DNA of 64,000 bases from an uncultured Actinomycetota bacterium (GCA_963743915.1 CAVURN010000001.1:224001-288000); one strand, 5' to 3'; positions 30,443 to 46,457 are shown, numbered from the stretch's first letter. Made by a program: numbers and translations. The notes: generated from the letters alone by a model not told the origin.

Positions 30443-32017
30443 GTGACAGCGGAGAGCTTCGACACCGTCCTCGTCGTCGACTTCGGCGCCCAGTACGCGC
30501 AGCTGATCGCGCGCCGCGTCCGCGAGGCTCGCGTCTACAGCGAGATCGTCCCCCACTCGATGCCCGTGGCCGAGATGCTCGCCAAGCGGCCGGCAGCGAT
30601 CATCCTCTCCGGCGGACCCAGCAGCGTGTACGCCGACGGTGCCCCGCAGGTGGACGCCGCCCTGTTCACCGCGGGCGTCCCGGCGTTCGGCATCTGCTAC
30701 GGCTTCCAGGCCATGGCTCAGGCGCTCGGTGGCGAGGTCGCCCACACCGGCACGTCGGAGTTCGGCGGCACGCCGCTCCGCGTCGTCGATCGCGAGTCAG
30801 CACTGTTCGCCGGTCTTCCGGACGACCTCTCGGTGTGGATGTCCCACGGTGACTCGGTCACCGTCGCCCCCGAAGGGTTCTCGGTCACCGCCATGAGCGA
30901 AGGCGCGCCAGTGGCAGCCTTCGAGGACGTCGAGCAGCAGCTCGCGGGCGTGCAGTTCCACCCCGAGGTGATGCACTCCCAGCACGGGCAGCGCGTGCTC
31001 GAGCACTTCCTGTTCGAGGTGGCGCGCTGCCGCCCCACCTGGACGATGAGCAACGTCATCGACGAGCAGGTGGACGCGATCCGCGGCCAGGTCGGCGACA
31101 AGCTCGTCATCTGCGGCCTGTCCGGCGGCGTCGACTCGGCCGTGGCCGCCGCCCTCGTGCAGCGTGCCATCGGTGACCAGCTCACCTGTGTCTTCGTCAA
31201 CCACGGACTGCTGCGCGCCGGTGAGGCCGAACAGGTCGAGAAGGACTTCGTGTCCGCCACCGGTGTCCGGCTCAAGGTCGTGCACGCCGAACGGCGGTTC
31301 CTGGACGCGCTCATCGGGGTCACCGACCCCGAGCAGAAGCGCAAGATCATCGGCCGCGAGTTCATTCGGGTCTTCGAGGACGCCGCCGCCGAGGTCGTGG
31401 CGGAGGCGGGCGCGCACGGTGAGCAGGTGGAGTTCCTGGTGCAGGGCACCCTCTACCCCGACGTCGTCGAGAGCGGTGGCGGCACCGGCACCGCGAACAT
31501 CAAGAGCCACCACAACGTGGGCGGGCTGCCCGAGGACCTGCAGTTCCAGCTCGTGGAGCCGCTCCGCGCCCTGTTCAAGGACGAGGTGCGCGCAGTGGGT
31601 GAGCAGCTCGGCCTGCCCGCCGAGATCGTCTGGCGCCACCCGTTCCCCGGCCCGGGCCTCGGCATCCGCATCATCGGCGAGGTCACCTACGACCGTCTCG
31701 AGACGCTGCGCGCCGCGGACGCCATCGCCCGCGAGGAGCTCACGCGCGCGGGCCTCGACCACGACGTCTGGCAGTTCCCGGTCGTGCTGCTCGCGGACGT
31801 GCGGTCGGTCGGCGTGCAGGGCGACGGTCGCACCTACGGGCATCCCGTCGTGCTGCGCCCGGTGTCGAGCGAGGACGCCATGACCGCCGACTGGTCGCGG
31901 CTGCCCTACGACGTCATCGCGCGCATCTCGACCCGCATCACCAACGAGGTGCGCGAGGTCAACCGGGTGGTGCTCGACGTCACCAGCAAGCCGCCGGGCA
32001 CCATCGAGTGGGAGTAG
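30443..32017 (+). CDS. guaA: GMP synthase (glutamine-hydrolysing)
   Basis: [42 protein letters not shown]. Confidence 0.99.
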
Positions 32018-32018
32018 T
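32003..32018 (+). repeat. attL: 16-bp direct repeat at the 3' end of guaA
   Basis: atcgagtgggagtagt, identical to 41815-41830. Confidence 0.9.
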
Positions 32019-32135
32019 CCACCAAGGCTGACCTGCGGGTTTGCGGCCCCTCATTGAACCTATGAGACCTGGCTTGACCCTACCGATACGCCATGGACGC
32101 TGTCCACGGGCACGGTGACGTACCGGAAAGGTGCC

Positions 32136-33008
32136 CTAGTACTCGCGTCCGAGGGACCCCGAGGAGGGGAGCAGGAACGGGGGATCATTGCCTTCGGCGA
32201 CCACGATCACCCGCTGCACCACCCAGTCGCAGAGCACCATGTGCCAGTTCTCCAAGGTGTTGACAAGGTCCCCCTGGAGCGGGAAGTCGGTCAGGCCGAG
32301 ATGCACTTCATGCACAGCATCGACGCTCGGTGGAGTGCCATCCGGGTTGACGAGGACCCCTAAGAGGGCTCCATCGGTGTAGGCGACTTGGCGCGACGGT
32401 CGCCAACGGTACTTCCCGCCGTCGGTTGGCTGCGCCCAGTAAACGAGGTCGGGCCACCAAGCGGTCACTGGCAGATGCCGGTGCTTGTCAGTGATTGACA
32501 GGGAGTGGAGCCGGTACACCGTGTCAAAGTGGGCATCCTGCTCGGAGACCTCGATGCCGAGTTCGGCAGCCTCCTCGCCGAAGGCAAAGGGCTGAACGCA
32601 GGCCAAGGCCCGTACGTCCTGAGTTCCAAAGAGCCCGCGCAGCCGCTCGACGATGGTCTTGTCAAAGGCTCTCCGGTCCAAGCACACGGGGAAGAAGACG
32701 CGCTTCTCGTCCGTGCTCGATAGTTGACCTCCGTGGTTGCGCTTGGCGAGGACGTAGGCCACGCAGTCCAAGGCCGAGCGCATGTTGTGTACCGCATCGC
32801 CGACGGTAGTGAGCAGGTCCACCGGCACCGGATCATGGACCCGAAGTCGGTACTGCACTTCACCAGGCGTCGCTGTGGGTGCGGTCTCCACCGTCCAGGG
32901 AGAAGTTGCAGTGAAGTCATCGACCAAGCGTCGGACTGATCGGAGGTGGTGATGCGCTCTGCGCAGTTTGGCCCACCACGGGGAGTCCGGGTCGGCCCAG
33001 TCGATCAT
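32136..33008 (-). CDS. Hypothetical protein (mobile-element cargo)
   Basis: 290-aa ORF with KLRRAHHHL, GDAVHNMRSALD, VQPF and LSITDKHRHL motifs. Confidence 0.75.
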   Translation of the reverse strand: MIDWADPDSPWWAKLRRAHHHLRSVRRLVDDFTATSPWTVETAPTATPGEVQYRLRVHDPVPVDLLTTVGDAVHNMRSALDCVAYVLAKRNHGGQLSSTDEKRVFFPVCLDRRAFDKTIVERLRGLFGTQDVRALACVQPFAFGEEAAELGIEVSEQDAHFDTVYRLHSLSITDKHRHLPVTAWWPDLVYWAQPTDGGKYRWRPSRQVAYTDGALLGVLVNPDGTPPSVDAVHEVHLGLTDFPLQGDLVNTLENWHMVLCDWVVQRVIVVAEGNDPPFLLPSSGSLGREY

Positions 33009-33112
33009 CTGGCTACCTTGACAGTCGTCGAGTGTTGAGTCGAGGACACGATCCCATGCTGCGCGCGAGTATTCGAGATGTCGAAGACTGGCGAAGAAAG
33101 GCGTGGGATCTG

Positions 33113-33140
33113 GGAACCGGCTGTGCTGACCGTGCGTGTT
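33113..33140 (+). promoter_or_regulatory. ECF-type promoter, leaderless
   Basis: GGAACC-N16-CGTGTT, ATG 7 nt later. Confidence 0.7.
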
Positions 33141-33146
33141 ATAGGT

Positions 33147-33650
33147 ATGCCTGTGGACTCTGAGCGGTTATCGACTTTCTACGAGCGGACATCTCCTCCG
33201 TTGGTGGGACTGCTCACGGCCATGTGCGGTGATCGCGCTGAAGCCGAAGAGGTCGCTCAGGATGCCTACGTCAAACTGGTCCAGAGATGGTCCCAGATAA
33301 GTGGCTACGACTCCCCGGAGTCGTGGCTGCGCATGGTCGCCGTTCGGCTTCTGATCAGCCGGAAGAGGCGCACCCGCACCTGGCTCACGGCCAGCCTTCG
33401 CCTCTCGTCCGATACCCCTGGACATGCACCGGAGCCGAGCGTCAACTCTGTCGCCGTGGCGGACGCTCTAAAGCAGTTGAGCCTGGAGCAGCGTTCGGTT
33501 CTGGTCTTGCACCATGGACTGGACCTTTCCGTAGAGGAAGTGGCCCAGATGCTTGCAATCCCGGTGGGGACGGTCAAGTCGCGTCTGGCTCGGGCCCGGG
33601 CCGCCCTCATGCCACTACTCGCCGATGAAGAGGTGCTGGGCCATGACTGA
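33147..33650 (+). CDS. ECF sigma factor (SigE family), copy 1
   Basis: AEEVAQDAY, YDSPESWLR, LVLHHGLDLSVEEVA, PVGTVKSRLARAR. Confidence 0.93.
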   Translation: MPVDSERLSTFYERTSPPLVGLLTAMCGDRAEAEEVAQDAYVKLVQRWSQISGYDSPESWLRMVAVRLLISRKRRTRTWLTASLRLSSDTPGHAPEPSVNSVAVADALKQLSLEQRSVLVLHHGLDLSVEEVAQMLAIPVGTVKSRLARARAALMPLLADEEVLGHD

Positions 33651-34452
33651 CATTGACCAACTCATCCGCGACCACATCAACGATTGCACTCCCTCTGCCC
33701 CTCCGCAGATGAGCCCGCGACTGACGCGATCCTTGGCGAATGGGGACAAGATCCCACCCAAACGCGCTGCGCTTGCCGTCGGTGCTACCGCCGCAGCGGC
33801 TGCACTTGTCGTGGCCGGGGTCGCCATCGCCCGAGACCAGATCGCCGAGACGACGCCCTCTGGCGCTGTTCCCGCCTCTGGCGATGTTCCGGTCCTGGTG
33901 ACGTTGCCCGACACGGGTCTGCACATGGAAGCCATCGTGAGCGGCACACTCGGGGTTCGTGATGGGTGCTTCACGGTGGATGGTGCAGTTCTGATCGCAC
34001 CCGAGGGCTCAACAGTCTCACCGGACGGTCAATCCATCGTGATGCCCGGTATTGCGACCGTTCAAGTCGGCGACAAGGTTATCGGAGGAGGCGGCTGGGT
34101 GAACGAGGCACCTGATGCGGCACAACCCAGCAATGCGCCCTGCGTCGAACCAGTCAGGGAGGACAACTTCGCCATCCTCTCTGCCCCCCTCGAAAGCCCG
34201 ACCCCAACGCCCACAACCTCAGAAAGCCAGATCAAGAACGTCCAGGTTCCCGACGTTATTGGGGACAAGGAGGCACAGGCTGTGCAACAACTCCAACAGG
34301 TTGGTCTGGAGGTGACGGTCGTTTACGAGGCCGCACCAGCGGGGACCACATTGGACGCCGGTACTGTCCTTTCGGCGTCACCTGCACCAGGAACCAACGT
34401 CAGGGTCGGCACCACCGTTGTTCTCAAGGTTGTCGATCCGGACAAGGGCTAG
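33643..34452 (+). CDS. Single-pass membrane protein with C-terminal PASTA domain (putative anti-sigma)
   Basis: Overlaps the sigma stop; TM AALAVGATAAAAALVVAGVAIA; VPDVIG..A..L..GL..GTVLS.SP..G..V.L.V. Confidence 0.8.
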   Translation: MTDIDQLIRDHINDCTPSAPPQMSPRLTRSLANGDKIPPKRAALAVGATAAAAALVVAGVAIARDQIAETTPSGAVPASGDVPVLVTLPDTGLHMEAIVSGTLGVRDGCFTVDGAVLIAPEGSTVSPDGQSIVMPGIATVQVGDKVIGGGGWVNEAPDAAQPSNAPCVEPVREDNFAILSAPLESPTPTPTTSESQIKNVQVPDVIGDKEAQAVQQLQQVGLEVTVVYEAAPAGTTLDAGTVLSASPAPGTNVRVGTTVVLKVVDPDKG

Positions 34453-34591
34453 CCCTCGGTCCGGGTTTGCCCGTGCCAGTGGCGGGGTTGCCTTGCATCG
34501 ACACAGTGAGGGGTGGCAAGGGCCGGACGTGATTCGCGGCGGGCCTCGTGTACGACGCCGTTCAGAGGGGCACTTCCACGCCAACGTTCGC

Positions 34592-35197
34592 TCAGGCGTT
34601 GACCCTCTCGTGGCTCTCGCTTGGCGCCGCCAGATGCCGGTACACGGTTGCGCGACTTACCCCCACAACAGCAGCAATGGCCGCAACGGTGTGTTCCCCG
34701 TCGTTGTGCATCTTCCTGACGATGTCGATCTGATCGGCGGAGAGTAGGGGCTTGCGTCCTGGGCGTGAACCGCGTTGCCGGGCAGCAGCGAGACCCGCCT
34801 TTGTTCGGTCAACGATTAGGTCACGCTCGAACTCTGCGAGCGCAGCGAAGATGTGGAACACCAACTTGCCTGTCGAAGTGGTGGTGTCGATGGACTCGGT
34901 GACCGACTTGAAGCCGATCCCTTCCTCGTCCAGCGAAGTCACGGTCCCCACCAGGTGCTTCAGGCTGCGACCGAGGCGGTCGAGTCGCCAGACCAGGAGC
35001 GTGTCCCCCGGACGGACGAAGTCCAGGGCCGCAGCCAACTGGGGACGATCCGTGCGGGTCCCGGAGGCGGTGTCGGTGAAGACGCGGATGCAGCCCGCTT
35101 GGGTGAGGGCATCGACCTGGAGGTCAAGGTTCTGATCCCAAGTGCTGACCCTGGCGTAGCCAACGAGGTCCCCGGAGCGTGTGGTCAGCGTGTTCAT
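34592..35197 (-). CDS. Serine recombinase (resolvase/invertase family)
   Basis: GYARVST..QNLDLQ, LDRLGRS, ALAEFERDLI, HTH GVSRATVYRHL. Confidence 0.96.
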   Translation of the reverse strand: MNTLTTRSGDLVGYARVSTWDQNLDLQVDALTQAGCIRVFTDTASGTRTDRPQLAAALDFVRPGDTLLVWRLDRLGRSLKHLVGTVTSLDEEGIGFKSVTESIDTTTSTGKLVFHIFAALAEFERDLIVDRTKAGLAAARQRGSRPGRKPLLSADQIDIVRKMHNDGEHTVAAIAAVVGVSRATVYRHLAAPSESHERVNA

Positions 35198-35205
35198 CCC
35201 GCCAG

Positions 35206-35340
35206 TGTCTCATAACCCGTCAGCGAGCACAATAGTGAGACAGGGCTCGTGGACACGGGATGTGGACGCTTTGGACCCCCGGATTCTTGGACATGGGGCG
35301 CCGCGAGCCGCTCTGTCCTAGACGGACCGTTTGTGCGACG
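35206..35340. promoter_or_regulatory. Putative res-type binding sites upstream of the resolvase
   Basis: tgtctca...tgagaca inverted pair (35206-35241) and accgtttgtgcgacg near 35326-35340. Confidence 0.55.
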
Positions 35341-35481
35341 AGTCGCTTGGCGCAGCACCCCGCGCAGGACTACGAGCGGTGCTTGCGGACGAACTGCGAG
35401 CCAGCATCGGGCCGCTGCCTCCTTCTTCTACGCGCACTGGGCGGCGGGAACCTCGACTCCCGTAAGCGCGTCATAATGCTT

Positions 35482-36036
35482 ATGAGCCGCTCGCGTCCCA
35501 TACTCCCGCTGGCGGCGGTCGCCATGGCCTTGGCGCTCGTGGCCTGCACCTCGGACACCTCAGACACCTCGCCAAGCGGGGAGAGTCAGGGTGCGACTGG
35601 GGAGCAGTCGGCTGCCACCACCATCGACCTGGTTCGGTCGGGTGCCTGTGGCGATGCCTTCTTCTGGGCGGAGTCCGCCGACGGCGATACCGCCGTGACT
35701 GTTGACGTTGCCTACTCACGGCCCGCTGATCTAGCCGTGACGCTGGCGATCCCATTCACCCTCCCGGATCGCAGCGTCAAGGTCCGCGTCTTGGAGGGTC
35801 AGGATCTCTCCCGCAACTTCTGCACCGACGTCATCGACATGACATCTCAGCCGGAGTCCACGTCACCGGCGCTTGTAGGGCACGGTCGAGTCACCATTGC
35901 CCCACCTCCGGGCAATGGCAACGCCTGTGGTCGCACGTTGGGCACCCTCCGCCTCAATGGGCTCGTCGCGGAGGACGGGGCCGAGTTCTCGCCGATCACC
36001 GTCGAGTCACGCAACATCGGGTGCTACTCCGGGTGA
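35482..36036 (+). CDS. Lipoprotein with 4 Cys in the mature part (module gene 1, copy A)
   Basis: Lipobox LVAC; GACGDAFFWA, RNFCTDV, NIGCYSG; preceded by GGAACC-N16-CGTCAT. Confidence 0.82.
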   Translation: MSRSRPILPLAAVAMALALVACTSDTSDTSPSGESQGATGEQSAATTIDLVRSGACGDAFFWAESADGDTAVTVDVAYSRPADLAVTLAIPFTLPDRSVKVRVLEGQDLSRNFCTDVIDMTSQPESTSPALVGHGRVTIAPPPGNGNACGRTLGTLRLNGLVAEDGAEFSPITVESRNIGCYSG

Positions 36037-36138
36037 GGCGTCACGCCCCAGGTCCTCGTACTCGAACTCTTCATGGTGTGGTGTAAACCGAATCGGCCTT
36101 GGGCGCCACTAGTGGGGTAGTTGAGGGCGGGAGGTCCT

Positions 36139-36675
36139 GTGACCGACGACCTGGACGAGTTCACCTCGTTCGTGGCGTCTTCTTCGGCTGCCCTCTTCCG
36201 GGTAGCCGGGCTACTGACAAGTGGTGACGCTCACGCGGCGCAGGACCTGGTGCAGGAGGCTTACTCCGAGACCTACCGTCGCTGGAGCAGCATCCGCGAT
36301 GCTGATGCCAGGCAGGCCTACGCCCGAAGGATCCTGGTCCGAGCCGCCACCCGGAGATGGCAACGGCTACGGGTGGAGCACCACGAGGCGCAGGTGCACG
36401 GCAGAGATGTCGAGGTGGGACACGCAGACCGTGTCACTGAAGCACGCGACCTGTGGGTGGCTTTGGGGGCCCTGTCACCCAAGCAACGTGCCGTGGTGGT
36501 GCTGCGCTACTACGAGGACATGACCGAGGCGCAGATCGCCGAGGTCCTGAACTGCTCACCGGGGGCGGTGAAGAGTCACGCCTCCCGTGGCCTCCGCACT
36601 CTTCAAGAGCGCCTCGGTGGCCCCGCTTACCTCAAACCAGCGTTGGATGGGAGTCCCGATGACGCCGTCAACTGA
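36139..36675 (+). CDS. ECF sigma factor (SigE family), copy 2
   Basis: AQDLVQEA, QRAVVVLRYYEDMTEAQIA, GAVKSHASRGL. Confidence 0.94.
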   Translation: MTDDLDEFTSFVASSSAALFRVAGLLTSGDAHAAQDLVQEAYSETYRRWSSIRDADARQAYARRILVRAATRRWQRLRVEHHEAQVHGRDVEVGHADRVTEARDLWVALGALSPKQRAVVVLRYYEDMTEAQIAEVLNCSPGAVKSHASRGLRTLQERLGGPAYLKPALDGSPDDAVN

Positions 36676-37936
36676 TACCTGGCTGAGCCAGAGACTGCAC
36701 GAGGGTGCGAGCACGCTTGCGGTTCCACTGAACCTGACAGATGAGGTCGTCGGTCATGCCATCAGATCGCAGCCCCGAAGCAATCGGATCCACGCCTTGA
36801 TGCAGGTCGCGGCAGCAGTGGTCGTCATGGCGGTAGTTGTGGTCGGTGTCAACGTTCTCCGCAGCGATAGCCCTTCGACCTCGCCACCTGTGGCCACTCC
36901 GACGCCAGTCGGCACTGCTGCACCAGTCTCGGACACCGCACGCGACCTGCTCGGCACCTGGCAGGTGGCTACATGGAATGGCGAACCACTCCCCAGATCC
37001 AAGGAGATGCTCAACGGCCCCCTGGTGACTTTCGAGACCGACGGCACCTGGAACGGGTCCGACGGATGCAACGACCTCGACGGCACATACCGCGTGGGGG
37101 CTGATGGCGCGTTCGAGTCCACCACCAAGGGAACGACTCTGATGCTCTGCGGTGGCGTAGACCCCCTTCCGGTGCCCGCTCGGGGCGCCGTTCGAGTGAC
37201 CGTTGAAGGCGATGTGGCTGTCTTCTTCGACACCGAAGGGCAGCAAGTGGCGAAGTACCACAGACCCGGAGGCTTGCTCGCGTCGGAGGCCCGGCTGGTC
37301 ACCCGGCTGGGAGATCCGGCGCTCGCGCTAAGCACCTACGGCAGCGGGAGTTGCCCAACGCGGATCGGATCAATCTCGTTGGAGGCTGACAACCAACTGG
37401 TGGTCGATCTTGCCGATTCATCCAGTCAGGTTTGTACCGCTGATGTCCAGAGGTCTACGGATGTGATGACCATCCCCGGTGGCCTCGATCTCGGTTCACC
37501 GATCACCGCAAGGCTCATGGGTACCCGCCCACCCTTCATCACTCTGCTCGTAGATACCTCGGCGATAGCCGGAGAGCCGCTGCTGGTCACAGCCAAAGAC
37601 TGGGACGGGTCATCGGTAGAACAGGCACGCCTTGAAGGCACCCTTGGTGTCAACGAGCAAGGCTGCGTCACTGTGGGTGACACGGTCGTGATGTGGCCCA
37701 ACACCTACGAACTCGGCTGGGACCGGGCAAGCACCTGGGTCATCGTCACGTTCGATGAGGACTACGGACCCGGCTACGGGACCGTCCTCGCCACCGAGGG
37801 AGAGCGGGTTGTCCTCGCTGGTGGCATGACACCGTTCGACACGAACCCCGGACCGCTACCCGCTGCGACTCACTCTGAGTGTCTCCTGGACGACGACTAC
37901 TGGACCGGCGTCATCGAAGTACAAGGTAACGACTAG
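36659..37936 (+). CDS. Membrane-anchored META-domain protein (putative anti-sigma), copy A
   Basis: Overlaps the sigma gene; one TM; LLGTW..FETDGTWNGSDGCN..GTYRV..TTLMLC META signature, then two further domains. Confidence 0.8.
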   Translation: MTPSTDTWLSQRLHEGASTLAVPLNLTDEVVGHAIRSQPRSNRIHALMQVAAAVVVMAVVVVGVNVLRSDSPSTSPPVATPTPVGTAAPVSDTARDLLGTWQVATWNGEPLPRSKEMLNGPLVTFETDGTWNGSDGCNDLDGTYRVGADGAFESTTKGTTLMLCGGVDPLPVPARGAVRVTVEGDVAVFFDTEGQQVAKYHRPGGLLASEARLVTRLGDPALALSTYGSGSCPTRIGSISLEADNQLVVDLADSSSQVCTADVQRSTDVMTIPGGLDLGSPITARLMGTRPPFITLLVDTSAIAGEPLLVTAKDWDGSSVEQARLEGTLGVNEQGCVTVGDTVVMWPNTYELGWDRASTWVIVTFDEDYGPGYGTVLATEGERVVLAGGMTPFDTNPGPLPAATHSECLLDDDYWTGVIEVQGND

Positions 37937-37955
37937 ACGCTGTCACTGGCTCGAC

Positions 37956-38357
37956 TCAGTACCTGTCGCAGGTTTCGACACCTTGCTGGATCTTGGCTTG
38001 GTCACGTTCGGAGAGTTCTAGGCCACGCCAGATGCTGGCACCGTCGTTGAGTTCGGCTGGCTCGTAGGCAGCGATGTGCAGGAGACGCTGGGCGTTCCAG
38101 AGTCGGTGCACTTCACGCCTCAGAGCCTTATCCCCAGCCGCTTCCTCACCCGCTGGGTCGAGCCCCCACACTTCCTTGTAGCCCTCATCGAACGCTTCGC
38201 GGTCCTTGGTCTCATACGCCGTCGCCATCTTCCGCAGCCCGTCGCAGGCGTCGGCCATGTAGGACTCGTAGGCGCTGGAGCACCCGGTCATGGTGAGCAG
38301 AACCATGCCAGCGGTCGTCGCGCCGAAGACCTGGCACCGAGTCCTTGAAGCCCCCAT
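37956..38357 (-). CDS. Small helical lipoprotein (module gene 4, copy A)
   Basis: Lipobox-like MTGC; paralog at 45996-46397; TAGCCT -10 just upstream. Confidence 0.8.
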   Translation of the reverse strand: MGASRTRCQVFGATTAGMVLLTMTGCSSAYESYMADACDGLRKMATAYETKDREAFDEGYKEVWGLDPAGEEAAGDKALRREVHRLWNAQRLLHIAAYEPAELNDGASIWRGLELSERDQAKIQQGVETCDRY

Positions 38358-38406
38358 GACGTAAGGCTAGGTGATGTGAACCAGGCCTATGAGCGGTTTC
38401 GCTTGT

Positions 38407-38688
38407 CTAGCGCACCACGGTCAGACTGGTGCGCTGCACCTGGGCCACGATGTCGACACCACCATCGGTGAGTGCCTTGGCCAGTGAGTGAGCGGAGTCG
38501 TCTACGACGGGTTGCACGCTGTGCGTGATGACCTCCCGGTCCCCGGGGTCGGTGTGCGCTGCCATCCGCACCCAGGACCCGTGAGCGTCTGTGTAGAACC
38601 TCACGGTTGCTCCGACTCGTTGGCACCAGGCCATCGTCTCGGCCAAGTCCAGCAGTGCCATCGCCTCTTCGAGTGTGGTCTCTGCCAT
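38407..38688 (-). CDS. Hypothetical protein
   Basis: 93-aa ORF with an aagggg RBS-like sequence before the ATG. Confidence 0.55.
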   Translation of the reverse strand: MAETTLEEAMALLDLAETMAWCQRVGATVRFYTDAHGSWVRMAAHTDPGDREVITHSVQPVVDDSAHSLAKALTDGGVDIVAQVQRTSLTVVR

Positions 38689-38882
38689 GGGTCCCCCTTC
38701 AGCGGTACACCATTGTCCTCGCCCTCAGCGCCAGTCCGCTAACCCTTACGAGTGATTGGTGTCATGGACCACGCTCGCGCAGGCGGTGAAGGTGCTGTCT
38801 GACCGATGAGCGCCACATTGGGCCGCGATGTCTCGAAGGATCATTGCTAGTTGATCGAAGGATTGTTGGTAGTGAGCCCTTC

Positions 38883-39272
38883 TCAGGCCCGTCGACCGTC
38901 CAGATCACCGGGATCGCTCGCTCGAAGTGCACGCCGCAACAGCGACGCCCGTTCCCAGATGTGCCTAAGGAGGAGTTGCAGTGTGTCGTTGGTGGCTCGT
39001 GCACGGTCCGGATTCTGCTCGTGGTCGATGGAGGACCTCGGGGTGAAGGAGGTCGTCCGTGAGAGCCAGAGGTCGTTGATGGAGCCGATCCCGGCGAAGG
39101 CCGAGAGCAAGTGGTCGAGGCCGAAGATGTCCCCGTGGCGAATGAGGTCGCAGTCATCGGCCAGCCATTCTGCCCACCGGCTCTCGCCCTGTCTCCCGAG
39201 CATGTCGACGACCTGATGCAGGTCGCGCACCAACTCACGCTGCAACATGTCGATGTCGGTCAGCGCCACCAT
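38883..39272 (-). CDS. DUF6966-like protein
   Basis: E.RWAEWL..D.FGLDHLL..FAGIGSINDL pattern, recognised from memory. Confidence 0.6.
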   Translation of the reverse strand: MVALTDIDMLQRELVRDLHQVVDMLGRQGESRWAEWLADDCDLIRHGDIFGLDHLLSAFAGIGSINDLWLSRTTSFTPRSSIDHEQNPDRARATNDTLQLLLRHIWERASLLRRALRASDPGDLDGRRA

Positions 39273-39376
39273 GTCGCGGATGCACTGGCCGGGTCGACCG
39301 TCTACGGATGTGCGCGAGGGGTCAGAGATTCTTTTATCTCCGAATCGTGGTGAGGATGTACGGCATCTGTGCGATG

Positions 39377-40366
39377 TCATGCTGCACTTCGGTACTCGAC
39401 GATGCGCAAGCCGTCTCCGTTGCCGCCTAGAAGCCTCAGGACCCCATCTGAGCCACGGAACGTGATGATGGGCACTCCGATCTCACCTGGCCCGTTCACC
39501 GCCGTTAGATCGGCTCTACGGCCAAGTGTGTGGAGAACCTCACCGGTCTCGACATCGATGAGATGCCTTGGCTGTTCGTCGCGGAGTGCCTGAGCCGAAT
39601 GGGTCGACAGCGCATGGAGGTTCTTGCTCGACCACTGGGCGTTCTTCTGGGCTGGGGTTAGTTGTTGCGTCCCATGCAGGGTGAGTACTCGCGTGCGTGC
39701 CTCCCGTTGGCTCAGCGGTTGCCTCGTCTTGCCGTCACGGAAGAAGCCACGGCCATGGATGAGTTCTCGACCGTTCAGGCGGATGTGCTCGGTCAGGCTC
39801 GCTTGGTTGTGGGTGACGTTCTTGGCGATGTACCCGAAGTCACCGTCGTAGGTGACCGGGACGAGGTCGGTGTGTCCGTAGCCGACCGTGGCTGCTTGTT
39901 CGGCCAGTTGATCCCTGCTGAAGTGGTCTCCCCAGCCCAAGGCGTGGAGGTGGAACCCGGTGGCGTTGGGGTTGGGTTCGATGGTCCATAGCCACTGGAC
40001 TACTCCTACCTGGTTCCGTAGCCCCGTCTGGAGGTCCGCGATGCGGTCCCTGTCTGCTCGGTAGTCTCCGACCAGGTTGGTCAGCAAGACCATGTACTGC
40101 GGCTGGGCCAGTGCAACCATGTCGGGCAGGTACTTGTAGCGGAGTCTGGTGTCCTGGAGGCAGTCAGGTCTCCTGCATCTGTCTGGTTGGGTCCTGTTCT
40201 CCCTGTTCTTCCCCTTGGGGCATGGACCCTCTGGTTCCCTCGGTCCCCACTGCTCCTCCATGCTCCTAGCGACACCTGAGGCTCCAGAAGGAAGTGTGCG
40301 GTAAGGAACAAGAGAGAGTGTCGAGACCGCCGAGGGCGGCTCGGGGGAGATGGGGAAGTCGTTCAT
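39377..40366 (-). CDS. HUH-endonuclease, rolling-circle Rep-like protein
   Basis: Motif I-like MVLLTNL, motif II WTIEPNP..GFHLHAL, motif III GYIAK; RBS gaaggag before ATG 40366. Confidence 0.75.
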   Translation of the reverse strand: MNDFPISPEPPSAVSTLSLVPYRTLPSGASGVARSMEEQWGPREPEGPCPKGKNRENRTQPDRCRRPDCLQDTRLRYKYLPDMVALAQPQYMVLLTNLVGDYRADRDRIADLQTGLRNQVGVVQWLWTIEPNPNATGFHLHALGWGDHFSRDQLAEQAATVGYGHTDLVPVTYDGDFGYIAKNVTHNQASLTEHIRLNGRELIHGRGFFRDGKTRQPLSQREARTRVLTLHGTQQLTPAQKNAQWSSKNLHALSTHSAQALRDEQPRHLIDVETGEVLHTLGRRADLTAVNGPGEIGVPIITFRGSDGVLRLLGGNGDGLRIVEYRSAA

Positions 40367-40390
40367 CAGATCTCCTTCAGATCGATGTCG

Positions 40391-40484
40391 CCGGGACACC
40401 CACCCGGATCTGAAGACGGGTGGGTGTCCCGGACGACGCCACAGCGGCAAGGAGGGGGCGACCCTCCTCTACCCCTTCAAGGGG
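40391..40484. other. Hairpin cluster between integrase and Rep (candidate origin or terminator)
   Basis: Perfect 16-bp IR 40391-40406 / 40417-40432; smaller IRs at 40450-40468 and 40472-40484. Confidence 0.7.
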
Positions 40485-40540
40485 GCTCGGAGTGTCTGCG
40501 ACAGGAAGACCGGACCATCTACCCCGGGACATGCCATCGG

Positions 40541-41636
40541 TCAGATGGAGTCAGCGAGGGGTCTCTCCTCGTCAGGGTGAAGTTGCACGACATCAGCCAG
40601 TTGCACCATGTCGCTCAGGAAGGGTCGGCCACGAAGCACTTGGTCCCGACGGATGCGCTCGCTGGAGAGGCCGAGGTAGTGCTCGGTGGTCGAGGAGTTC
40701 TTGTGGTGCAGGAACGCGGAGGTGGTGCGAAGAGCGTGGTCGTACTGCCCCTGTCGCCAGACATGTCGAAGAAGTGTCGGGCGGCGGCACGGCGCATGGT
40801 GTGCATCCCCTCGCTCTTGACGGGGAGACCCAGGCGGCTGAGCCCGTACTGGACGATGCGCTCGGGGTGTTGGAGCGGCTTCGCGGGGTTCCAGGTGGCC
40901 TCGACTCGCCCCTTGACCTGCTTGCCGCCTTCACCGACCGTCCAGGCGTACCGACTTCCATGTCTGGCCGGGAACAGATAGTCGTGGTCGGTGAGGGGAC
41001 GCCCGATGTCGAGGGCGTAGGTCCGTAGCCAGTCAGCCAGGTGCTGCCCCAGGTCCGACGTGATGGCCACGTTGTCGTAGTCGCCAGACTTCGAGATGAC
41101 CACCTTCATGCTGTACGCGGCCAGGTCGAGATCGCCCACCCTGATGCTCAGGAGTTCATGACGCCTCAGCGCCGTGTTCGCTGCGGCTGCTAGTAGCGCC
41201 CGGTCGCGGCTGTTCGCCGCCCCCTCGATCATCGCCAGCAACTGCTCTGGGCTCGGCTGAAGCCGCTCTTGTCGCGGCACCCGCATGGGTGTCACCTCCC
41301 GCAGGAGAGCGCGGCGGACGACACCCCTCCTAGTCCAGTGCTCGAAGAACACGTCCATCGTCTTGCGGTAGTAGTTGTGGGTGCTTGGGGCGACCGGCTC
41401 TCGCTGGAGTCCGTCTCTCGTCACATGCTGACGCATAACTCCGTTGGCACCCGAGAAGAAGTCCTCGACGTGGCTCTCGGTCAGGTTGCGCAGTTGTATG
41501 TCGCGCTCCAGGAAAGCCGCGAAGCGCCTGAGGACGTACCCCTGGTTCGTCACGGTCGACGAAGCAAACCGGGCTGCGCGAAAGTGGAGGAACTCCTCCA
41601 CAGCCTCGGAGACCGTGATGTGGTGCTGGGTGCCAT
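40541..41636 (-). CDS. Tyrosine recombinase/integrase (apparent frameshifts near 41620 and 40746)
   Basis: NTALRRHEL (catalytic R), HTMRR (HxxR); the shifted frame gives LHHKNSSTTEHYLG with the catalytic Tyr and a stop at 40541; RBS gaaagg before ATG 41636. Confidence 0.92.
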
Positions 41637-41814
41637 GAGAGGGCCTTTCGGGTGTTCGGCGTATTGAGTTGAACAGCGTCTGGCCTCTCTGGCTCAACGA
41701 GGAGAACACACCGACGGGCACCGTGGCAACCCTTACTACGCCTGGGGTTTCGGCGTTAGCAAGAAACCTTGACAGTGATTGATGGAGGACTAGCAAGGAT
41801 GTTTCAAGTCCCCA

Positions 41815-41830
41815 ATCGAGTGGGAGTAGT
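41815..41830 (+). repeat. attR: duplicate of the guaA 3' end
   Basis: atcgagtgggagtagt, about 180 bp upstream of the integrase start. Confidence 0.9.
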
Positions 41831-41910
41831 GCATGAAGGCTGCGTGCTGAGCACCGAGCAGTGCTCGCCAAAGCGGTGACTGGCCGCCATTCGAGTGGGA
41901 TCGTGGGTTC

Positions 41911-42252
41911 ATGCGTCGAACGCTGGTCGTGACGGTCGGGCTCGTTCTGGTGGCCGCCGTGATGGTGGCAGGCTGGTGGACGTATCAGAATCGCGTGTGG
42001 CTTCGTGATCAGTACCAGGAGGGCTACCAGGCAGGTGCCCGGTTCGACCGGCAGGACTACCTGACCGACTGCCATCGCCGTGTCGATCATCAGTACGGCG
42101 TGCGCGTAGACGTGTCGATGCCTGAGAACGCCGCTGCCTTCACTATCGGCTGCTACGACGCCGCTCGGGATAGGTACCGGCCAGCAGCTGTTGGTTCTCT
42201 GCTCGCTGAGTTCATGGGGAAGTCCGACGTGAGATTCTGGCCGTGGTGGTGA
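41911..42252 (+). CDS. Small membrane-anchored hypothetical protein
   Basis: N-terminal TM, YQEGYQAG, Cys pair, AFTIGC. Confidence 0.65.
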   Translation: MRRTLVVTVGLVLVAAVMVAGWWTYQNRVWLRDQYQEGYQAGARFDRQDYLTDCHRRVDHQYGVRVDVSMPENAAAFTIGCYDAARDRYRPAAVGSLLAEFMGKSDVRFWPWW

Positions 42253-42674
42253 TGGATCACCAGGACTCGCGCATCAGTCGTCGCGCTGTCGTGGTGTTCG
42301 GGAGCCTGGTCCTCATCGCCGCGTTGACCGTCGGGGGTTGGTGGGGGTACCAGAACTGGGTGTGGCTCCTGAATCCTGAGGTGAAGGACCAGATCGTCGA
42401 CTTCACCAAGCAGGAACTCAGCGTGGATCGGACTGAGGTCGGTGATTGGAGGCTGGGCGGGGAGTGCATCGTGGCGGAGGTCGCGGTGTCTGGCGGTGAG
42501 ACCTATCGAGTGGCCCTGGTCAACCAGAACCCTGAGCCGAATCCGTACGAGCCGCTGTGGATCTCGCAGATCTTCACGCTCGATGACTTTGTATCGTCCA
42601 GTGATGCGTGGTGTGGAATCATCCACACCCCCGCGTACGTCTTCGATAGCAACGGCGAACGCATCATCGGCTGA
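42252..42674 (+). CDS. Small membrane-anchored hypothetical protein
   Basis: N-terminal TM ending GWWGYQNWVWL; coupled to the previous stop. Confidence 0.65.
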   Translation: MDHQDSRISRRAVVVFGSLVLIAALTVGGWWGYQNWVWLLNPEVKDQIVDFTKQELSVDRTEVGDWRLGGECIVAEVAVSGGETYRVALVNQNPEPNPYEPLWISQIFTLDDFVSSSDAWCGIIHTPAYVFDSNGERIIG

Positions 42675-42683
42675 GTGAAGAGT

Positions 42684-43103
42684 TCAGTAAGGCTTCTCCG
42701 GACCGGGAACGACTTCGCGGTCGCCTAGTGGCTCAGTCATTGTCACGGTCACGGTGACCGGCGGGTTGCCTTGGCAGGTGTGGGCGTTCCCTTCCGGTGG
42801 GATCGCCCACACGGTCAAGATGGCGATGTCCTCCCCGTACTCGACGACCGGCTGCGGGTCCTGAGCCTTGGCCCCACCGGTACACGCGATCCACGCCACC
42901 TGTACGTCGAACTCTCGGTCCTCGGGTCTGGGTTCCTTTCCGGCGAATTGCCAGTGAGCGACCTTGCGGCCATCAGTGTCTACCTCGGCGGTGGTAGTGG
43001 TGCCTGGCTCATCTTCTGCCGTCTGGCTGGACAGTCCATCCGCGCAGGCCCCCACACTCAGCAACAGCGTCACGGCCACCCAAGCGATGTGCTGGGTCCT
43101 CAT
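42684..43103 (-). CDS. Lipoprotein
   Basis: Lipobox VGAC; ACTGG..TCQGNP..EPLGDR; preceded by GGAACC-N16-AGTCTT. Confidence 0.8.
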   Translation of the reverse strand: MRTQHIAWVAVTLLLSVGACADGLSSQTAEDEPGTTTTAEVDTDGRKVAHWQFAGKEPRPEDREFDVQVAWIACTGGAKAQDPQPVVEYGEDIAILTVWAIPPEGNAHTCQGNPPVTVTVTMTEPLGDREVVPGPEKPY

Positions 43104-43192
43104 GGTCCTAAGACTGTCAGGCGCGGGTCGTGGTTCCCCGGTTTCAGGCTCGCGGTCGACCGAGAACGCGAGGTGTAGCCCTGGAGTGGTCC

Positions 43193-43525
43193 ATGGCGGC
43201 GCACACTAGGTCTGTGCATCGCCGACCCGTTCGAGCCGCGGGGATTGCGGTGGCCGGAGTCGTGGCTGCGGTCGTTTGGTTATGGGTTGGGCCCGGCAGC
43301 TACCAGCCCTGTCTTCCCGCACCTCCGTGGGACGATCTCGCCGTCTGGATCAGTGGGAGTCTTGGAGCTGGGGAGACCGACGGACTGTCGGGAGCGCCTG
43401 CGTTCTGCGACATACCTACGGACTTCACCTGGGTCGTCGCGCTCGGGATGCTGGCAGTCGCCGTGGCGGCAGCCGTCTGGCCGGTGGTAGGGGGCAGGAA
43501 CCTCGACTCCGGGCAGCGCGTCTGA
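43193..43525 (+). CDS. Small two-TM membrane protein
   Basis: Two hydrophobic segments flanking a loop with 2 Cys. Confidence 0.55.
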   Translation: MAAHTRSVHRRPVRAAGIAVAGVVAAVVWLWVGPGSYQPCLPAPPWDDLAVWISGSLGAGETDGLSGAPAFCDIPTDFTWVVALGMLAVAVAAAVWPVVGGRNLDSGQRV

Positions 43526-43530
43526 TGGCC

Positions 43531-44079
43531 ATGAGCCGCTCCCGTCCCATAACGCTGCTGGCGACTGCCGTCATGGCGCTGGGGCTTGTGGCCTGTACCT
43601 CGGACACCTCAGACCCGTTGACAAGCGGGGAAAGTCAGGGTGCGACTGGTGCGCCGGCCGCCATCAACCTAGTCCGGTCGGGTGCCTGTGGCGATGCCTT
43701 CTTCTGGGCGGAGTCTGCCGACGGGGATACCGCGGTGACCGCCGAGGTGACCTACTCCCGGCCAGCCGGGGCGAACCCGACGGTGGCCATCCCGTTCTCG
43801 CTGCCTGGCAACCGAGCCGTCAAGGTCGAAGTACTCACCGGGCGCGATCTGTCGCGCAACTTCTGCACCGATGTCTTAGACATGTCATCCCAGCCCGAGT
43901 CGAGGTCACCGGCGGTTGCAGGGGAGGGTCGGGTCACCATCGACGCACCTCCGGCCAAAGGCAACGCTTGTGGTCGAACGTTTGGCACCCTCGACCTGAG
44001 CGGGCTTGTCGCGGAGGACGGTTCGGTCTTCTCGCCGATCACCGTGCAGACCCGCAACATCGGGTGCTTCGCCGGTTGA
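43531..44079 (+). CDS. Lipoprotein (module gene 1, copy B)
   Basis: Lipobox LVAC; paralog of 35482-36036; preceded by GGAACC-N16-CGTCTG. Confidence 0.82.
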   Translation: MSRSRPITLLATAVMALGLVACTSDTSDPLTSGESQGATGAPAAINLVRSGACGDAFFWAESADGDTAVTAEVTYSRPAGANPTVAIPFSLPGNRAVKVEVLTGRDLSRNFCTDVLDMSSQPESRSPAVAGEGRVTIDAPPAKGNACGRTFGTLDLSGLVAEDGSVFSPITVQTRNIGCFAG

Positions 44080-44182
44080 TGCTTCACGCCGTGGGTCCTC
44101 GCGCTCAGACTCCTCAGGGTGGGGTGTAAACCGAATCATCGGCTGGAGCCACTAGTGGGGTAGTTGAGGGTGGGAGGAGCCG

Positions 44183-44719
44183 GTGACTGACGACTTGGAC
44201 GAGTTCACCTCGTTCGTGGCGTTTTCCTCGGCCGCCCTCTTCCGGGTAGCCGGGCTACTGACAAGTGGCGATACCCATGCAGCGCAGGATCTGGTGCAGG
44301 AGGCGTACTCCGAGACCTACCGACGCTGGAGCAGCATCCGCGATCCTGGTGCCCGCCACGCCTTCGCTCGACGCATCCTCATCAGGACAGCCACCAGGCG
44401 TTGGAAGCGGCTCCGAGTCGAGCAGCCGGGGCAGCACATGCACGAGGGGCCGGTCGGCGTCAGTCATGCGGACCAGGTTGCACAGGCCCATGACCTGTGG
44501 GTGGCGCTGGCGGCGCTGTCTCCCAGACAACGGGCCGTCGTGGTGCTGCGCTACTACGACGACATGACCGAGGCGCAGATCGCCGAGGTGCTGGGGTGCT
44601 CATCCGGGGCGGTCAAGAGTCACGCCTCTCGCGGCCTGCGGCGACTCCAGGAGCAACTTGGTGGCCCGGGCTACATCACCACGCACACGGAGGAGAGCCA
44701 CCATGGCACCGCCACCTGA
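44183..44719 (+). CDS. ECF sigma factor (SigE family), copy 3
   Basis: Close paralog of 36139-36675. Confidence 0.94.
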   Translation: MTDDLDEFTSFVAFSSAALFRVAGLLTSGDTHAAQDLVQEAYSETYRRWSSIRDPGARHAFARRILIRTATRRWKRLRVEQPGQHMHEGPVGVSHADQVAQAHDLWVALAALSPRQRAVVVLRYYDDMTEAQIAEVLGCSSGAVKSHASRGLRRLQEQLGGPGYITTHTEESHHGTAT

Positions 44720-45977
44720 GACCTGGCTGAGCCAGCGACTTCGCGAAGGCGCGGACACACTGCAAGTACCCTTCGACCTCACTGATGTGGTCGTCAATGA
44801 AGCCATCCAGTCGCAGTCCCGGAGCAAGCGAATCCACTCGGCCGCGCAGGTGGCAGCAGTGGTGGCAGTTGTGGCGTTCGTTGTTCTCGGTGTCAGTGTC
44901 ATCAGAAGCAAGGACACCCAGACGCCGACTCCTGCCGACTCCCCGACACCGAACAACACGATGGCACCAATCACCGACCGTGCAACCGCCCTGCTTGGGA
45001 CCTGGGAGTTGGTCGTCTGGGAGGGCGAGCCCGTGCGTCGCTCCAAGGGGATGCCCAACAGCGCACTTGCGACTTTCCAGACCGACGGGACCTGGGAAGG
45101 ATACGACGGATGCAACTTTCTCAACGGCACATACCGCGTGAGGGCAGATGGCAACTTCGTGTCGACCATCAACTCCACAACATATGCCGCTTGCCCCGGT
45201 ATGACGCTGCCCGCCATGCCCGCTGTGGGTGCAGTCCGAGTGTCCGTTGACGATGACGCCGCCATCTTTCTTGATGCCTCGGACGAGCCCGTGGCGAAGT
45301 ACCGCAGGCCAGGAGGACAGCTCGCGGCTGAAGCGAGAGTGGTCACTCGACCCGACGGCGCGGCTCTTGCGCTCAGCACCTACGGCAGCGGCAGTTGCCC
45401 AACCCGGATGGCCTCCATCTCGCTTGATGGTGACGGTCAACTGATGGTGCAGATCGCAGACTCGCCTGACACGCCTTGCACAGCCGACTTCCGCAGGTCG
45501 ACCGATGTCATGACGCTGCCCGATGGCGTCGACCTGAGCGCTCCGCTCACCGCCACCCTGGTGGGGAGGCAGCCCCGCATCACGCTGCTTGTCGACACAC
45601 CAGCCGGACTGGGAGAACCGTTGCTGGTCGTAGCCAGAAACTGGGATGGCGGGTCAGTGAGGACGGCTCGCCTGGAAGGGACCCTAGGGGCGAACGAGCA
45701 AGGCTGCGTCACCGTGGGCGGAACGGTCGTGATGTGGCCAAGCACTTACCACCTGGTCACCGACCGGGCAGATATGTGGGCTATCGCCACCACCGATGAG
45801 CGCTACGGGCCCGGGTACATGAACGTCCTCGCAACCGAGGGCGAGTCCGTAGTCCTCGCCGGTCACGTGACGCCGTTCCAGGTGCGCTCCGGGCCGTTAC
45901 CCACTGCGAATCACTCAGAGTGCCTCCTCGACAACGACTACTGGACCGGGATCATCGAGTTACCACCGAACGACTAG
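44703..45977 (+). CDS. Membrane-anchored META-domain protein (putative anti-sigma), copy B
   Basis: One TM; LLGTW..DGTWEGYDGCN; STYGSGSCP; ARLEGTLG..GC. Confidence 0.8.
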   Translation: MAPPPETWLSQRLREGADTLQVPFDLTDVVVNEAIQSQSRSKRIHSAAQVAAVVAVVAFVVLGVSVIRSKDTQTPTPADSPTPNNTMAPITDRATALLGTWELVVWEGEPVRRSKGMPNSALATFQTDGTWEGYDGCNFLNGTYRVRADGNFVSTINSTTYAACPGMTLPAMPAVGAVRVSVDDDAAIFLDASDEPVAKYRRPGGQLAAEARVVTRPDGAALALSTYGSGSCPTRMASISLDGDGQLMVQIADSPDTPCTADFRRSTDVMTLPDGVDLSAPLTATLVGRQPRITLLVDTPAGLGEPLLVVARNWDGGSVRTARLEGTLGANEQGCVTVGGTVVMWPSTYHLVTDRADMWAIATTDERYGPGYMNVLATEGESVVLAGHVTPFQVRSGPLPTANHSECLLDNDYWTGIIELPPND

Positions 45978-45995
45978 ACGTGTGACTGGCTCGGC

Positions 45996-46397
45996 TCAGT
46001 ACTGCTCGCAGGTCTCGATCCCTAGGTGCACCTTCTCCTGGTCTTTCGCCGTGAGTTCCAGGCCACGCCAAACACTCGCTCCCTCATTGAGTTCGGCTGG
46101 TTCATAAGCGGCTATGTGCAGGAGACGCTGGGCATTCCAGAGCCGGTGGACCTCACGCCTCAGCGTCTTGTCTCCCGCTGCCTCCTCGCCTGCTGGATCG
46201 AGGGCCCACACCTGCGTGTAGCCGTCCTCGAACGCTTCTCGATCCTTGGACTCGTAGGCAGTCGCCATCGTCCGAAGCCCGTCGCAAGCATCGGCCATGG
46301 AGGACTCGTATGGGCTGGAACATCCTCCGAGGGAAAGCGCGACGAGAGCACCACTCGTCAGGCCGACGACGCGACGCAGAGACCTCGATACCCCCAT
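45996..46397 (-). CDS. Small helical lipoprotein (module gene 4, copy B)
   Basis: Lipobox LGGC; paralog of 37956-38357. Confidence 0.8.
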   Translation of the reverse strand: MGVSRSLRRVVGLTSGALVALSLGGCSSPYESSMADACDGLRTMATAYESKDREAFEDGYTQVWALDPAGEEAAGDKTLRREVHRLWNAQRLLHIAAYEPAELNEGASVWRGLELTAKDQEKVHLGIETCEQY

Positions 46398-46457
46398 GGC
46401 GCAAGGGTAGGTGGTCGGCCGAAGCCCCCGCAGGGTTCTGTGTCGTGCGCCCGGGGT

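Follow-up and report, generated by a model that had tools for sequence, protein, structure and literature searches.

Actinomycete integrative conjugative elements (AICEs) combine an integrase (Int), a replication initiator (Rep) and an FtsK-type transfer protein (Tra) (PMC3218068). The 3′ end of guaA is the target of a number of integrative mobilizable elements, among them ATE-1 of Trueperella, GIsul2 and the Brucella IncP island (PMC5704250), and the flank of the same gene is also targeted by the integrase cluster of epsilon15/CMGI-3 (PMC8138268). The PICMIs of Vibrionaceae (chromosomal minimalist islands that are phage-inducible) show that an island with excision and replication functions only can be a phage satellite (PMC10803314). 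Both guaA-targeting elements and minimal integrase-plus-replication islands are already known, and what follows is to be read with that qualification. Here we describe a 9.8-kb stretch of DNA located directly behind guaA in an uncultured Actinomycetota bacterium (GCA_963743915.1). It was analyzed within a window of 64,000 nucleotides (CAVURN010000001.1:224001-288000). This stretch is probably a site-specific integrative element in which a tyrosine integrase, a Rep of the HUH type and a serine resolvase form the backbone, two extracytoplasmic function (ECF) sigma/anti-sigma modules and lipoproteins are the cargo, and self-transfer is lacking.

The element resembles AICEs in its actinobacterial host, its size of about 10 kb and its combination of a tyrosine integrase with a rolling-circle HUH initiator; in AICEs the excised circle replicates (PMC3218068, PMC2440964). 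Compared with the AICE definition of Ghinet et al. (2011), it has the integrase (PF00589, in a frameshifted copy) and has neither the Rep type nor the FtsK/SpoIIIE Tra. It differs from AICEs in having no FtsK/SpoIIIE Tra, Xis, Spd, Pif or Kor-type genes, in having the end of a protein gene and not a tRNA as target, and in a Rep that by library match is not RepSA, RepAM (PF12307) or Prim-Pol (PF09250), the presence of a RepSA profile in the library being unchecked. The gene order in pSAM2 is rep-xis-int, whereas the order found here is att-int-rep. With the guaA-associated mobilizable elements it shares a tyrosine integrase targeting the guaA 3′ end and the lack of conjugation machinery, and some of those elements carry replication genes (PMC5704250). 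By their published descriptions ATE-1 carries a relaxase of the MobV type and GIsul2 carries RepA/RepC (PMC5704250); in the element described here an HUH Rep of another family is the sole DNA-processing enzyme apart from the recombinases. PICMIs are likewise very small islands with an excision and replication core and accessory cargo; their spread is fully helper-dependent, their concatemers are consistent with rolling-circle copying, and they carry int, alpA and a primase, lie beside fis and are satellites of virulent tailed phages (PMC10803314). The element in the window has an HUH Rep, no AlpA, a guaA site and no known helper.

The features that delimit the element and form its backbone, with positions counted from the first nucleotide of the window, are as follows.

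30443..32017, plus strand: guaA (GMP synthase), the target gene; NF000848 equivalog, open reading frame (ORF)
32003..32018, plus strand: attL core, 16-bp exact direct repeat; repeat search
32022..32045, plus strand: left-arm motif directly behind the core; similar sequence after guaA in several sister species
34592..35197, minus strand: small serine resolvase of 201 residues, backbone; PF00239 E 3.9e-45, HTH_7
39377..40366, minus strand: Rep, 329 residues; conserved HUH motifs, fold matches, weak PF23343 match
40391..40432, minus strand: hairpin, candidate double-strand origin or nick site; perfect 16-bp stem, 10-nt loop
40541..41640, minus strand: tyrosine integrase, disrupted as assembled; PF00589 E 1.9e-9, phrog_1 E 6.4e-19
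41802..41814, plus strand: right-arm sequence beside the core; kept at guaA in two sister species (G015 and G011)
41815..41830, plus strand: attR core, 16-bp exact direct repeat; repeat search

The target gene was identified as guaA by the GMP synthase equivalog NF000848 (match over residues 9-524; 769 bits, cut-off 400). Its 3′-end 16-mer, ATCGAGTGGGAGTAGT, is present in exact direct copies at 32003-32018 and 41815-41830, and the attL core consists of the final 15 nt of guaA plus one base. Since the last 15 nt of the gene come with the element as a copy, guaA is left intact. The exact repeat brackets 9.8 kb of low-GC DNA (0.63 versus 0.71) in a host genome of 2.9 Mb (5 contigs, about 71% GC, 90% complete), and the step from about 0.71 to 0.63 falls exactly at 32000, that is at attL. 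No third match was found across the window with up to 3 mismatches permitted, and simple arithmetic gives a chance of about 3e-5 for an exact second copy. The duplication of the guaA end described in a first-pass annotation of this DNA was thereby confirmed as the sole pair of matches in the window. Its proposal of an integrated element at this site is supported by the repeat, by the drop in GC and by arms kept in sister species.

The host order is represented in the genome collection by one family only, with 20 species genomes, and across this family the region downstream of guaA is variable. In one sister species (G012) a homologue of the MarR gene that begins at 46465 in the window begins 73 nt behind guaA, which looks like an empty site. 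In another (G015) a second exact core lies 793 bp behind guaA, preceded by the right arm (1 mismatch in the 28-mer that includes the core), and the MarR homologue begins about 100 nt behind this second core. Relative to these two genomes the window holds 14.4 kb of extra DNA, made up of the 9.8-kb element and 4.6 kb to its right (41831-46457). In a third (G011) a core with 2 mismatches at +1836 is preceded by the right arm (3 mismatches in the 28-mer) and about 130 nt of the integrase 5′ region, and is followed by a second copy of the left arm. This arrangement suggests two successive units of core and left arm behind guaA (L025, ~1384-5127), i.e. tandem accretion. The second of these units carries an ECF sigma gene and a 320-residue ORF. 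Scanning for the left-arm motif gave 3 and 2 mismatches in G011, 5 in G016 and 6 in G015; by eye, a similar motif follows guaA in the flanks of 6 of 15 relatives (G015, G011, G016, G017, G007 and G013). In the last of these an integrase fragment was found at the contig end, 2.3 kb from an ABC transporter.

A second gene-bearing member was found in metagenomic contigs (L043/L044), in the order tyrosine integrase, one ORF, Rep, HNH, two ORFs and a resolvase fragment. Its Int is 46% identical to that of the window (E 8e-102), its Rep 38% and its resolvase 62-64%, with the order kept. A guaA-type gene end, in reverse complement (...GAGTGGGAGTGA), was found some 100 nt upstream of its integrase; the contig stops before the other junction, and the guaA gene itself falls outside the 5.9 kb seen. 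Judged by these comparisons, the guaA elements with Int, Rep and resolvase are a family with two gene-bearing members (window and L043/L044) and gene-less arms in G015 and G011. The suggestion of an unnamed element family thus held as to the joint conservation of the three genes and the remnants at guaA in sister species, with the restriction that only two gene-bearing members are known. That the element was made of integrase plus Rep held for these two genes and failed for "only these two", since the serine resolvase, which belongs to the backbone, had been overlooked.

The 329-residue protein had been taken for an HUH-type Rep from its HLH and YIAK motifs, and this was borne out by its motifs, its fold matches and its relatives with PF23343 matches. 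A HMMER search of 1.84 billion cluster representatives gave 275 clusters of relatives at E <= 1e-3, of which 58 reached E <= 1e-10. P89, H139 and Y179 never vary across the 60 sequences aligned, and C49, C64, C69, E130, N132, P133, G137, H141 and K182 are at least 90% conserved; H139 and H141 are both invariant among the 17 closest sequences. An N-terminal cysteine cluster is followed by a TLT-type motif I, the HUH motif and YxxK, the fourth cysteine being absent from the window Rep and its two nearest relatives. Fifteen of the 60 relatives match Pfam PF23343 (ORF2/G2P Rep) at E <= 0.01, the best at 6.5e-7. The mean pLDDT of the AlphaFold model is 76, with values above 90 over most of residues 61-230, and the model gave 46 matches at E <= 1e-3 to the predicted viral structures of BFVD; among the 50 listed, all named matches are replication proteins of microviruses or other viruses, one of them with an ORF2/G2P domain. 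The marks of the Rep class of HUH proteins with a single tyrosine, namely the metal motif, YxxK with motif I upstream and the alpha/beta fold, were all found. The initiators of single-stranded DNA (ssDNA) phages (PF23343 REP_ORF2-G2P; VP4 of Microviridae) are similar in the order of motif I, HUH and YxxK, in fold and by weak profile matches; the window Rep differs from them in its N-terminal cysteine cluster and a C-terminal extension of 100 residues. On motifs and model, the protein is a predicted single-tyrosine HUH initiator of an uncatalogued family. It had no match in PHROGs, NCBIfam or PADLOC, and tblastn found none in the PLSDB plasmids and 50,697 GenBank phage records; in 2.9 million viral contigs there were 16 pattern matches and no true relative. 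A similarity to alphavirus capsid protein obtained with phmmer against PDB sequences (E ~0.85) was rejected as chance.

Rep homologues are rare in genomes: 2 of 20 carry one in the family, 4 of 401 in the class and, by profile search, 4 of 401 in the phylum; Int was matched in 2 of 401 genomes of the class. A scan of Joint Genome Institute (JGI) metagenomes with an alignment of 7 Rep sequences produced 67 loci. Contigs were called circular when identical ends of at least 20 nt were found, and this was the case for 26 of the 67 Rep-encoding contigs, of 1.17-2.4 kb (23), 3.5 kb (2) and 6.26 kb (1); three further contigs have terminal repeats of 543-1019 nt. Two pairs, L090/L092 and L087/L088, are mutual circular permutations from different samples. 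The 1.17-2.4-kb circles encode Rep essentially alone and have 60-73% GC. Two linear contigs, L071 and L067, contain three and two tandem Rep units, respectively, which are 82-88% identical and about 1.8 and 2.3 kb long; they could represent heteromultimers, copies integrated in tandem or strain variants merged in assembly. Because these two contigs hold tandem diverged units, tandem arrays are an alternative explanation for some of the "circles". The 6.26-kb circle (L092 1-6381, L090) has all ORFs on one strand, a 582-residue ORF and a Zot/pI gene directly before rep. Its Zot scores 26.1 bits with PF05707 (cut-off 20.3), and by tblastn it matches 46 phage records, those listed being pI proteins of filamentous phages (IKe, If1, PEar and phages of Thermus). 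A second contig (L093) also has Zot adjoining rep. From its gene content the 6.26-kb circle is probably inovirus-like, a filamentous phage of a high-GC host. In tblastn searches the Rep of this circle had no match in the phage records and that of a mini-circle none in the plasmids.

Other relatives adjoin recombinases. In L095 a tyrosine integrase is followed by an HTH_17 protein and Rep, in L010 a tyrosine integrase is followed by one ORF and Rep, and in L009 and L106 a large serine recombinase adjoins Rep. In a midpoint-rooted FastTree tree of 81 sequences the window Rep falls in a clade of seven with SH-like support of 0.90; five of its members have a linked tyrosine or serine recombinase, no member is on a circle, and of the other two one lies beside an insertion sequence and an HNH gene and one on a short contig. 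An additional recombinase-linked locus (L023) falls outside this clade. A link between Rep homologues and integrases, on which the first-pass annotation had made its reading depend, was therefore found, as the nearest relatives with known context adjoin site-specific recombinases. No guaA gene was found within the loci of the other Rep-bearing integrated elements or beside the integrase homologue in G025. The only other such Rep in the host family (G014; L003 7662-12906) is 74% identical and still adjoins a DUF6966 gene; ahead of it are a large serine recombinase in truncated form, a piece of a Prim-Pol and a helix-turn-helix (HTH) protein, and the GC of the contig is about 63% throughout the 20 kb read. 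In G450 (L019 9480-10391) Rep is a pseudogene spread over three frames, and no recombinase was found closer than 10 kb. A DUF4193 gene is located near the Rep homologue in L019 and likewise in L021.

Int and Rep are both encoded on the minus strand, and the hairpins reported between them are three in number. Folded as ssDNA, the 165-nt spacer has a free energy of -40.6 kcal/mol (z -7.9), and none of 200 shuffles folds as well. The central hairpin has a perfect 16-bp stem (40391-40406/40417-40432) and a 10-nt loop and is located 25 nt upstream of the rep start. Its loop contains TCAGATC. In G014 the spacer is 75% identical and the hairpin is retained with one compensatory pair and some mismatches. 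The TCAGATC motif is also present upstream of rep in L043/L044, within DNA that otherwise does not align; it occurs once in that contig, with 0.02 occurrences expected per 370 nt, and was absent upstream of rep in the 69 other loci examined. By position and by analogy, the hairpin at 40391-40432 is the best candidate for an origin or nick site. Alternatively, it may serve in translational control of rep, which is possible because its loop is complementary to the rep ribosome-binding region at 9 of 9 nt (window 40363-40416).

Scans of the element ORFs against Pfam, PHROGs and PADLOC detected no excisionase, FtsK/SpoIIIE, relaxase, terminase, capsid or Zot family, and no conserved Walker A motif was found in any of the six frames. 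Two Walker-A-like strings were present in the six frames, both attributable to chance; one of them falls within Rep, where no P-loop is conserved. The absence of Xis, Tra and virion genes noted at first sight thus stood up to family scans and the six-frame search. The single FtsK_SpoIIIE match of the genome is at C1:811253, 547 kb off. No helper was found in the 90% complete host genome, which gave no match to Zot or HK97-type capsid proteins and none over the cut-off to VirB4-type proteins. It contains four tyrosine recombinases, the two strongest of which (329- and 351-residue ORFs) fit XerC/XerD by size.

Sampled words of 38000-42300 were found in 19 public sequencing runs from 13 studies of sediment, freshwater, wetland and soil, and contigs with 0-1 differences per kb were present in the four runs compared (X1-X4). 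This shows that host or element is widespread; mobility does not follow from the distribution. No circle or empty-site junction was found over 31000-43000 in the contigs of the four runs, in which two joints were unseen and from which rare forms drop out. The only long backward joint, 41954 -> 35573 in one X4 contig, fits the paralogous lipoprotein genes described below. There was next to no depth to the right of attR in X1, X2 and X4, and a 1709-nt contig of X1 matches 40368-41829 and continues with 246 nt foreign to the window; the element may have a different right-hand context in these three runs.

We propose that the integrase would recombine the att site of the element with the last 15 nt of guaA, the element bringing a replacement gene end; the repeat is what was observed of this reaction. 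The excised circle would then be nicked by Rep at an origin beside rep, for which 40391-40432 is the best candidate, and copied by the rolling-circle mode. We infer this step because of the motifs and fold of Rep and because its relatives are found on contigs assembling as tiny circles. The resolvase would resolve multimers, and transfer from cell to cell would rely on something not encoded by the element. Excision, rolling-circle replication and helper dependence, as suggested by the first-pass annotation, are all inferences.

The remaining genes between attL and attR are listed below.

32136..33008, minus strand: 290-residue ORF, cargo or backbone; without family match
33078..33650, plus strand: ECF-type sigma factor (cargo); Sigma70_r2, r4 and r4_2, E 2.6e-15
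33553..34452, plus strand: membrane protein with C-terminal PASTA, putative anti-sigma partner (cargo); PASTA E 7.6e-13
35260..36036, plus strand: lipoprotein-like ORF (cargo); 69% identical paralog at 43276-44079
36121..36675, plus strand: second ECF sigma factor (cargo); Sigma70_r4_2 E 3.3e-18, 80% identical paralog at 44183-44719
36587..37936, plus strand: META-domain membrane protein, putative anti-sigma partner (cargo); META E 9.3e-11, 62% identical paralog at 44568-45977
37956..38357, minus strand: lipoprotein-like ORF, 133 residues; no family match (Pfam, PHROGs, PADLOC)
38407..38688, minus strand: 93-residue ORF, sole candidate for a small backbone gene; no family match (Pfam, PHROGs, PADLOC)
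38883..39380, minus strand: DUF6966 protein, overlapping the end of rep; PF22294 E 2.4e-11

The 290-residue ORF had no match in Pfam, PHROGs, NCBIfam or PADLOC, and a protein atlas led to unnamed actinobacterial clusters only. An internal ATG is probably the real start of the PASTA protein, whose putative anti-sigma role is suggested by gene position. No Xis-like domain was detected in the 93-residue ORF. The protein atlas gave no function for the DUF6966 protein; in G014 a 65% identical ORF lies directly behind the Rep homologue, so that the pair of Rep and DUF6966 is conserved.

Part of the cargo is duplicated outside the element: 35440-38373 is 74.6% identical to 43490-46413, and 33199-33632 is 67% identical to 47590-48023. 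The DNA directly past attR (41831-46457) is low in GC and contains three small ORFs and a lipoprotein/ECF sigma/META module; G012 and G015 do not have this stretch between their guaA and MarR genes. This stretch may be an older element in tandem that has no integrase. The duplicated cargo would be explained either by such an older related element or by capture of host-island genes by the element. No degenerate third core was found at the far end of this second low-GC stretch. An Rfam scan of 31500-50500 gave no family, and no tRNA genes were found in the window. Farther to the right, two ABC transporter genes (membrane and ATPase, 49416-53041) are each broken over at least five frames, and their counterparts in G017 and G001 are single ORFs of 589-741 residues. 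These splits are either genuine decay or a patch of assembly indel errors, and because of them frameshift patches in the assembly have to be reckoned with.

A number of observations weigh against the interpretation as a site-specific element that excises and replicates. The pair of Int and Rep beside guaA was found nowhere else in the genomes searched, remnants in sister species apart. The window Rep scores 20.4-20.7 bits with PF23343 (E ~6e-4), under the cut-off of 27.8 bits, and Foldseek found nothing at E <= 1e-3 for its model in PDB. The proposed origin was chosen by position and analogy, and a search for a hairpin-loop motif shared among the mini-circles found none. No excisionase was detected in the element by library scans. 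GC is not restored at 41830 and stays at 0.62-0.66 as far as about 50 kb, so that the low-GC DNA is twice as long as the bracketed part, which the first-pass annotation had missed. Since low GC and paralogous cargo genes extend past attR, some of the "cargo" could belong to a host island and not be long-standing DNA of the element. Finally, the integrase is frameshifted near 40754-40761 and has no in-frame ATG as assembled, so that the integrated copy in the present assembly may be immobile.

The state of the integrase was analyzed by comparison with public sequences. Its N-terminal domain, R and HxxR are in one frame, which then enters low-complexity sequence, and LHH..Y is in another frame; the motifs quoted in the earlier description of this gene (R, HxxR and LHH..Y) are split over these two frames. 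The intact form is represented in public metagenomes by a protein of 365 residues (P0154), of which residues 4-297 correspond to one frame of the window genome (97% identity) and residues 293-365 to another (96%). The contigs of X1, X3 and X4 have one base fewer at 40754 and one extra behind 40759 and behind 40761, a net gain of one base, and therefore the integrase frame is restored. Owing to a compensating pair of indels at 41626 and 41680, the contigs of X1, X2 and X4 have the intact form's ATG in frame. The integrase stretch differs from X1 contigs in 9 bases and 5 indels over 1.46 kb, and 34122-40325 differs from the six covering X1 contigs by 2 bases in all. Either the consensus is locally wrong or the allele is truly dead, and in the latter case this copy could not excise.

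Decay could explain the locus in another way: the island would be the fixed rest of a larger AICE or prophage, with Rep and integrase as relics. The frameshifted integrase, the decayed 0.8- and 1.8-kb remnants at the same site in sister species, the G014 homologue among fragments of a serine recombinase and Prim-Pol, the G450 pseudogene in three frames and the extension of the island past attR all fit this explanation. We nevertheless regard it as unlikely, for the repeats are exact, the frames of Rep, DUF6966 and resolvase are open, and in L043/L044 the three backbone genes recur, with none for transfer or virions over the 5.9 kb seen. Moreover, intact integrase alleles exist that are 96-97% identical to the two int segments of the window (P0154 and contigs of three of the four runs), and contigs with 0-1 differences per kb are present in runs of several studies. 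That the repeat is coincidental and the region an ordinary variable stretch of chromosome is hardly credible. The variability downstream of guaA in the family would permit it, and 8 of 100 shuffles in a control gave two matches at up to 3 mismatches; however, the match here is exact and lies about 175 nt from the integrase start, the element-side flank is kept at guaA in two other species, and a guaA-type end also adjoins a homologous integrase found elsewhere.

The remaining alternatives concern the way in which the element would move. RS1 and TLC accompany CTX-type phages in Vibrio, and by analogy the element could be a satellite of a filamentous (inovirus-like) phage that keeps integration and a G2P-like Rep, its helper supplying coat and assembly functions and packaging single strands. 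The same Rep family does occur on the 6.26-kb circle with Zot/pI before rep and in L093, its nearest Pfam family is the ORF2/G2P Rep of ssDNA phages, and the fold matches are microvirus initiators. The Zot-linked Reps, however, are elsewhere in the tree than the window clade, the 90% complete host genome has no Zot, no relatives were found among the viral contigs or phage records searched, and no packaging signal could be recognised; unlike an inovirus prophage, the element has no P-loop, and neither it nor the genome has a pI/Zot ATPase (PF05707). We consider a satellite of this kind improbable. Highly doubtful is an integrative mobilizable element whose Rep doubles as relaxase, the circle being mobilised by the conjugation machinery of another element. 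The element does have its own integration/excision module with att sites, and mating-pore genes are lacking. Relaxases related to rolling-circle initiators are encoded by 118 of 144 such elements in Streptococcus, some serving also for maintenance, and elements of this kind, the actinobacterial ATE-1 among them, make use of guaA 3′ ends (PMC5704250). Yet the element encodes no coupling protein and no P-loop protein, the Pfam scan found no canonical relaxase family, the host genome has no VirB4-type match over the cut-off and only a housekeeping FtsK, and no member of the Rep family lay beside conjugation genes in the contexts examined. The reading that we favour on balance is still that of an integrative element with Int, HUH Rep and resolvase that does not transfer itself.

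What is particular to this locus is the uncatalogued Rep family with its links to mini-circles and an inovirus-like genome, the backbone of three genes and the decay series at one site. We found no published description of this Rep family or of an Int-Rep element at guaA in the lineage, most subscription journals and supplements lying outside the coverage of the search. A bolder interpretation, to which we attach little weight, is that the family connects three life-styles in Actinomycetota: Rep-only circles of 1.2-2.4 kb, which would rank with the smallest known replicons, a genome of 6.3 kb resembling that of filamentous phages, and chromosomal islands linked to recombinases. The element in the window would then be an integrative satellite parked at guaA, copied by its own G2P-like Rep and leaving in particles of an unseen actinobacterial filamentous phage with envelope-stress regulators as cargo.

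Overall, the analysis points to an initiator family that has no match among PLSDB plasmids or GenBank phages and yet comprises 275 metagenome sequence clusters, and that links, at the level of sequence, integrated islands, Rep-only mini-circles and an inovirus-like genome. At a single chromosomal site it presents a natural series that runs from an apparently complete element to 0.8-kb scars. The element is a compact system for the minimal gene set of an integrative replicon, and with it the spread of regulatory modules, for instance of pairs of ECF sigma and anti-sigma factors, can be put to the test.

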